64,000 nucleotides of DNA from Rotaria socialis (Eukaryota): assembly GCA_905331295.1 (NCBI GenBank), contig CAJNYD010000077.1, positions 1 to 64,000 on the forward strand, read 5' to 3'. The notes beneath the pieces are model-generated. The model was not told the origin of the DNA, ran no database searches, and was given only the letters and a program-made list of their open reading frames with translations. The position numbers and the translations under genes were made by a program. Of the stretch, positions 36,063 to 36,700 are shown piece by piece (the first letter of the stretch is position 1; each line of letters opens with the position of its first letter).

Positions 36063-36700
36063 TTAAAAATTAGGCAAACTGTCATCTGATCCAAATGTCA
36101 TGAAATAGATTGTAATCGTTGTAAAAATAACTAGATTAGCTGACATTATGAATGCCATTGACCCAACTTGAATCTTAATTGAAAAAGTAAAAATAAAATA
36201 AAATCATCTAATTGCAAAAATCTACTACACATACGATAGAAGTTCGATACATAACTGCTGGTAAGCCAAATGCTGAAACAACAATAACACTTGTAATGAA
36301 CCACATTAAATCTGCGCATGGGCTTGTGTCACGCATCGTATAACTACTATCGGATGTGCATCGACGTCCAATAGCTATCGGTATTGGGGAAAGTACATAA
36401 AATATTATTACAAATGTTGGCCACCAATTACTTCAAAAACAAAATAAACTATAGAAACAAATCAACAATAAGATAAATACATACTATTCAGCCAATGCAC
36501 AACCTAAGATCAGTAATGTAAGACCAATTGAAGCAAGAAAAGCAAGAAGAACAACACTATACACGATAATAATAAGAAATATTCATATTTCATCGGTTAA
36601 AATACTTGCCCTAGAAATAAAAATGTTAAATTATATTTTTTACATGTTTCTTTTTTTTTAGAATGAATATTTTACCTTTAATGCCTTGAAAAAAGCCCAT
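36063..36700 (-). CDS. LEPROT: Vps55 / leptin receptor gene-related protein, 134 aa; exons 36700-36676, 36610 (1 nt), 36556-36485, 36430-36235, 36173-36063
   Basis: MGFFQGIKGVVLLAFLASIGLTLLILGCALAEYNWWPTFVIIFYVLSPIP...FITSVIVVSAFGLP matches the Vps55 family. Spliced length is 405 nt. It is missed by the ORF track because the exons are short. Confidence 0.9.

Follow-up and report, generated by a model that had tools for sequence, protein, structure and literature searches.

An exon of a single nucleotide very probably forms part of the Vps55/LEPROT gene on the minus strand of the window (i.e. the whole 64-kb stretch of Rotaria socialis DNA that was analysed). The mRNA of this gene carries one G that removal of a single canonical intron would not leave, and we put at about 0.93 the probability that this G derives from a 1-nt exon at 36610, preceded by a GT-AG intron of 65 nt and followed by a GC-AG intron of 53 nt. 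Three exons would then probably contribute to Gly codon 9. The features of a 1-nt exon found here were a base in the mRNA that is not otherwise supplied, a conserved single base between an AG and a GC, and a requirement of the reading frame for that base.

The gene, which encodes a small membrane-sorting protein, was assigned to the Vps55/LEPROT family (Pfam PF04133) from the exon 4 peptide, which scored 63.3 bits against a curated cut-off of 24.6. At 100% identity, this peptide matches a protein that bears the NCBI label Rotaria magnacalcarata, marking the window as DNA of a bdelloid rotifer. A full-length relative, P0007, scored 118.6 bits across profile positions 1–120. Translation along the 1-nt exon path gives a protein of 134 aa, and the 3′ UTR reaches at least 36000. 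The coding part of exon 1 stops in phase 1, after the first base of Gly codon 9, and the exon at 36556–36485 opens with the third base of a codon. Coordinates predicted for the exons and for both introns in a sequence-only reading of this DNA were all found to be correct when re-read in the sequence (Table 1).

Table 1. Features of the Vps55 gene and of the gene upstream of it, with positions in the window.
Feature	Position	Strand	Basis
Upstream gene, Ribosomal_S21 family, 88 aa	36855..37231	minus	RNA joints, translation, Pfam
S21-family gene exons	37231-37146, 37089-36997, 36942-36855	minus	RNA joints
Vps55 trans-splice acceptor, AG 36727-36726	36726..36728	minus	Leader in X1-X4
Vps55 exon 1: 25-nt 5′ UTR (36725-36701) and 25-nt CDS (36700-36676)	36676..36725	minus	Sequence, RNA contigs
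Intron 1, 65 nt, GT..AG	36611..36675	minus	Sequence, relatives; separate removal presumed
Putative 1-nt exon (G), middle base of Gly codon 9	36610	minus	Extra base in RNA, 13/13 loci; origin at this base presumed
Intron 2, 53 nt, GC..AG, donor GCAAGT	36557..36609	minus	Sequence, relatives; separate removal presumed
Exon 3, 72 nt, third base of codon 9 and first transmembrane helix	36485..36556	minus	RNA contigs, Pfam
Intron 3, 54 nt, GT..AG	36431..36484	minus	RNA joint
Exon 4, 196 nt	36235..36430	minus	RNA contigs, Pfam
Intron 4, 61 nt, GT..AG	36174..36234	minus	RNA joint
Exon 5, coding part up to the stop	36063..36173	minus	RNA contigs, translation

The junction was examined in assembled contigs from seven of eleven runs (X1–X5, X8 and X11), a form of evidence from which rare forms drop out. 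By study, X1 belongs to P1, X2 and X3 to P2, X4 to P3 (with a different organism code) and X5 to P4. The contigs were spliced at four canonical introns and carried both leaders and poly(A), indicating that the runs are RNA. In X1, X2 and X3, 36555 was joined to 36674 with 2 letters of slack in the placement of the joint. A total of 118 bases was skipped, one base less than the canonical 119-nt GT-AG intron, so that the mRNA contains the one extra G that had been predicted. Contigs of X4 had a net length equal to those of X1–X3, with C rather than T as the third base of codon 9. X5 exhibited the 118-base joint with just 22 letters on the short side; as this falls under a 31-letter rule, support was counted as four of seven runs (three studies), with X5 agreeing. 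Contigs of X8 and X11 do not reach the joint and are neutral on it.

No 119-nt skip, retained intron or 172-nt skip was present in the contigs of runs covering the joint, the G-included form being the only one in five runs at the level of contigs, which drop rare variants. Likewise, neither a single-intron intermediate nor a lariat was found among the assembled contigs. Two outcomes had been named beforehand as counting against the prediction, and neither was observed: no contig held the G-less mRNA, and an alternative first exon was not seen, the leader standing 25 nt upstream of the Vps55 ATG on these contigs. The loose 5′ end at 36727 is the published 23-nt rotifer spliced leader (consensus in the available text of PMC3795323), indicating that exon 1 is the first exon. 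This leader is absent from the window, where the best match has 5 mismatches of 19. The base in question is a G, but so are the opening base of the GT donor and the closing base of the AG acceptor, so that RNA alone cannot tell which G was kept.

Splice paths across this region were then compared for their effects on the reading frame. A single 119-nt intron, a 5-nt exon, a retained intron 1 or a retained intron 2 each resulted in an early stop, in agreement with the claim that the frame is lost by skipping the middle, by using the GT donor of the 5-nt exon or by reading through. The GT at +5, which generates the 5-nt exon, was rejected on account of this frameshift and of its weaker U1 pairing (5–7 of 11). 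Enumerating every path that removes one or two introns bounded by GT/GC-AG or AT-AC gave 820 paths, many of which keep a frame; exactly one of them, the 1-nt exon path, gives the RNA junction. The further claim that a single G is the sole option for restoring the frame was upheld in so far as no other path among the 820 matches the RNA, but it was too broad, as a canonical 172-nt intron (36675–36504) is also in frame. This intron removes the first transmembrane helix, and the 1-nt exon is therefore needed for the full frame. Since each form that keeps helix 1 without the 1-nt exon is frameshifted, this exon appears to be inherited as an obligatory element of the gene and not to serve as a regulatory switch. 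The cryptic in-frame acceptor at 36504 lies inside exon 3 (Leu-Gly codons) and is used by one NCBI model, P0010, and by none of the RNA contigs. Nearby RNA-confirmed canonical introns measured 54, 61, 54 and 56 nt, so that lengths of 65 and 53 nt are typical for the window, as had been proposed, and one of 118–119 nt would be about twice the usual size.

Intron 2 has GC..AG ends and an otherwise near-consensus donor, as is characteristic of U2-type GC-AG introns. Pairing with U1 was scored against the textbook U1 end. The intron 2 donor (GCAAGT[A/G]T) made 9 of 11 pairings in 14/14 sequences (i.e. the window and 13 related loci), with the +7 (A/G) and +8 (T) positions pairing in every one, as a functional GC donor would be expected to do. 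Pairing was more modest at the donor of intron 1, with 6 of 11 positions in the window and 6–7 in sequences of this gene copy.

Related genes were obtained from a metagenome scan that returned 16 loci, 13 of which were bdelloid-like Vps55 genes (L001–L013); the other three (L014–L016) were spurious and were removed before counting. Exactly one AG-G-GCAAGT block was present between exon 1 and exon 3 in 13/13 loci. In these loci and the window, the ten bases around the G (TAG-G-GCAAGT) are invariant, the exon base being G in all 14 sequences and the donor always GC, and the AT-rich intron cores are 38–94% identical. Exon 1 ends in phase 1 at a GT donor in each of the 12 loci that include it, and the phase-1 to phase-2 mismatch of the window recurs in all 12. 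Spacing from exon 1 to exon 3 ranged from 98 to 119 nt among loci. With several loci being near copies of each other, 8 sequence types, window included, were counted for lengths: intron 1 measured 46–65 nt (44 nt in L005; SD 6.7 nt), intron 2 52–56 nt (SD 1.2 nt) and intron 3 54–60 nt (SD 2.2 nt). A second Vps55 gene copy (L011, with which L012 and L013 group by sequence) also has the acceptor-G-donor block, indicating that the block is older than that duplication. In L011 this copy (1521–2015) lies just downstream of an ICMT-like gene and has a similar acceptor before its ATG.

The motif TAGGGCAAGT has a single occurrence on both strands of the window, and the chance expectation for the 9-mer is 1.3e-5 per 110 intron bases. 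As the motif was chosen post hoc, its invariance in 13/13 related loci is a stronger test than this figure. A looser second match at 58526 lacks a pyrimidine tract and was treated as chance. Separately, the acceptor end of intron 3 (36431–36435 in the window, and its counterpart in L001–L013) reads AAG and not YAG in 14/14 sequences, an uncommon yet conserved acceptor.

The extra G could also be left by one non-canonical intron of 118 nt, with cleavage either 1 nt beyond the donor (TA..AG) or 1 nt short of the acceptor (GT..TA). The 2 letters of slack in the joint allow both cuts to fit the RNA, and introns other than GT-AG, GC-AG or AT-AC are known at a frequency of ~0.08% in a mammalian survey (available text of PMC13149111). 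Such an intron would, however, be twice the local size and would leave unexplained both an invariant mid-intron acceptor-G-donor block with full U1 complementarity (13/13 loci) and the fixed distance of 52–56 nt from this block to the acceptor. The variant in which exon 1 is extended into the GT is ruled out for X4 by its third codon base of C, if the X4 donor is GT as in 12/12 loci. We consider a 118-nt intron to be improbable. Still less probable is a main product made by another route, i.e. from some other first exon, from a start inside the gene or by way of the 172-nt intron, which is in frame and takes out helix 1. This 172-nt path is canonical, in frame and followed in a public model, but leader-bearing contigs of X1–X4 run from 36727 through exon 1 to exon 3, the 172-nt skip occurs in none of them and exon 3 matches positions 1–22 of the Pfam Vps55 profile. 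These routes are largely refuted as the main form and could yet provide a minor isoform. A base lost at the junction in the window assembly, or a G inserted by RNA editing, is similarly implausible, as the same phase mismatch and internal block are found in 12/12 independently assembled loci holding exon 1 and we know of no precedent for insertional editing of an animal nuclear mRNA.

Public gene models were inspected for their treatment of this junction. A direct K-G-V-V junction was present in one of 18 bdelloid Vps55 proteins checked (P0007, from a 905-nt JGI contig), and the correct junction in 0/14 NCBI bdelloid gene models; three further bdelloid proteins are read-through calls on DNA. 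The faulty models variously run into the upstream gene, keep part of an intron, splice at the +5 GT or lack helix 1, errors that a missed 1-nt exon would cause. For example, P0010 follows the 172-nt intron and lacks helix 1, P0014 and P0015 have the second Vps55 copy fused to the ICMT-like gene, and two NCBI models fuse an S21-family gene with Vps55.

This upstream gene was identified as an S21-family member by a Pfam PF01165 match on the fused model P0002, and its product is probably mitochondrial. The spliced leader is found on both the S21-family and Vps55 mRNAs, which form an operon-like pair (window 36726–37233). On the S21 mRNA, the leader is joined at the AG at 37233–37232, directly before the ATG, leaving no 5′ UTR of its own. 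In X1 and X4 the poly(A) tail of this mRNA begins at 36727/36728, right on the AG that serves as the trans-splice acceptor of Vps55, indicating that there is no spacer between the two mRNAs. The S21-Vps55 order is kept in 9/10 loci (L001–L010, with L006 being cut). This layout recalls nematode SL1-type operons, and a literature search found no paper describing operons in which polyadenylation falls on the trans-splice site. In the adjoining DNA, X1 has a 679-nt minus-strand contig of low depth whose end lies near 37323 (window 37323–37420), and imperfect short repeats lie at about 37540–37800.

The order in which the two introns are removed can be considered from their signals. As the 3′ splice site of intron 1 would overlap the 5′ splice site of intron 2, the major spliceosome could not be expected to hold both together, and the introns would have to leave one after the other. 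Earlier removal of intron 2, with its GC donor, is the order towards which we lean, on the basis of its high U1 complementarity (the best in the window gene copy despite the C at +2), its near-fixed length and a downstream-first tendency in plants. This step would consume the acceptor at 36557, which otherwise allows frameshifting skips, and intron 1 would thereafter face an ordinary 73-nt exon. Against this order, GC donors are usually slower, and the pyrimidine tract is stronger in intron 1 than in intron 2 (10.0 and 8.25 of 11, respectively), which would suit removal of intron 1 first. For plant microexons, the downstream intron is the one that tends to leave first (PMC8831610), and sequential intron removal is likewise argued by Guo and Liu for APC11 (PMC4674806), each according to the available text.

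Literature searches for exons of 1 nt returned two plant genes (APC11 and VPS55), CYP621A of Fusarium and some mitochondrial cases; for the papers cited here, statements refer to the parts of their text that were available. The two plant examples named in the sequence-only reading proved accurate (PMC4674806, PMC8831610). The exon of plant VPS55 has been confirmed by RT-PCR (Yu et al. 2022, PMC8831610) and is also present in Zygnema (PMC11096116). Where models omit it, the N-terminus is shortened by 13 residues in Arabidopsis and one helix out of four is lost (PMC8831610), placing the plant exon within the first 13 codons, a position compatible with codon 9 of the rotifer gene. Plant VPS55 cluster 2 thus resembles the rotifer gene in having, within the same gene family, a 1-nt exon near the start and upstream of the helix 1 region, and in losing the N-terminus and one helix where annotation misses this exon. 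In contrast, the plant donor is GTRAGT (PMC8831610) and the bdelloid donor GCAAGT in 14/14 sequences, one plant clade has lost the exon whereas both bdelloid copies keep it, and the rotifer host is an animal with an SL trans-spliced transcript.

It seems somewhat probable that the rotifer and plant VPS55 exons occupy the same codon. A plant-protein-seeded search (340 matches in total) gave no member of the exon-bearing plant clade among the 120 matches listed, all of which were from the exon-less clade. Scans of genome and viral contigs with plant, invertebrate and bdelloid Vps55 alignments produced no match, and no position of the plant exon is given in the supplements of the MEPDB and Zygnema papers. 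Among the listed matches from the exon-less clade, G occupies position −20 from a conserved Cys in 118/119, and K (106) or R (3) occurs at −19; these residues fit a relic splice site at −20 and at −19 alike.

Arabidopsis APC11, whose 1-nt exon is constitutive, resembles the rotifer case in having a frame-essential base between two spliceosomal introns for which sequential removal is proposed (Guo and Liu 2015, PMC4674806). It differs in being another gene with AG and GT flanks, and in that its base was proven by substitution whereas the rotifer base is deduced. For Fusarium CYP621A (Nelson and Syed 2026, PMC12940212), the likeness extends to a G as the middle base of a Gly codon, a phase-1 to phase-2 mismatch, an apparent intron of ~2× the usual size and evidence of the same type (i.e. 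conservation and RNA); the differences are a fungal P450 gene and a GT donor. Recursive zero-length AG/GT sites also have an abutting acceptor and donor and stepwise removal (PMC13149111). The Vps55 arrangement differs from these sites in that one base is retained and the introns are of ~55 nt, with 98–119 nt in all, and not very long. The introns of placozoan mitochondrial cox1 are of self-splicing types and not spliceosomal. This gene likewise has a one-base exon in an animal, and differs in being mitochondrial (PMC5436844).

The distribution of the arrangement in other animals was assessed with 146 distant Vps55 representatives (from the best 150 of 505), in 93 of which the equivalent of Gly 9, 19 residues before the conserved Cys, could be located. 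Vertebrate-type models with a foreign N-terminus had A, S or T at this position in 16/16 cases (12, 2 and 2, respectively), residues that fit a single intron in phase 1 with no microexon. The same pattern is compatible with two nematode-like proteins, of which P0082 is labelled Onchocerca. Four read-through calls (P0110, P0111, P0159 and P0173), chosen by eye and with two lying outside the 93, show C, F, Y or D at this position and R or S at the next, which would correspond to the reading of a phase-2 YAG acceptor at that codon, as in bdelloids. In P0118, a model from the mite Oppiella, translation continues beyond a phase-1 donor and rejoins inside the Gly 9 codon. Most of the remaining non-vertebrate rows were uninformative, and P0123 and P0135 have A. 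As judged from these protein sequences, the 1-nt exon arrangement is suggested to extend beyond rotifers. The model of another protein, P0168 (labelled Sarcoptes scabiei), continues past the donor of exon 1 and includes R-A-S, which is what the bdelloid acceptor-G-GC block encodes when read through; this may reflect a GC donor in the mite, or chance.

Literature searches, which miss most subscription papers, found no 1-nt exon in a nuclear gene of an animal, and none appears in the available text of PMC7392893, PMC8632122, PMC9341508 or PMC8042270. Annotated 1-bp exons without experimental support are mentioned in a 2011 paper (PMC3064661), and the Fusarium CYP621A paper, in its available text, presents its exon as the second to be reported and gives no example from an animal (PMC12940212). 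The novelty here is a spliceosomal exon of 1 nt, supported by RNA, in a nuclear gene of an animal and with an invariant GC donor, for which these searches found no counterpart in print. We rate as slightly better than even the view that this is the same exon, in the same codon, as that of plant VPS55. It would have been kept since the plant-animal ancestor in bdelloids and other invertebrates and lost in vertebrates and nematodes through loss of the second intron, with the bdelloid GC donor helping to set the order of splicing.

A missed 1-nt exon explains the wrong N-termini of the examined public bdelloid Vps55 models, some of which are fused to the upstream gene. As the whole unit spans ~120 nt, the order of removal and the role of the invariant GC donor are testable in one small minigene. 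If the plant position is equal, a single-base exon would have survived since early eukaryotes, which would bear on the gain and loss of introns and on the persistence of so fragile a structure.
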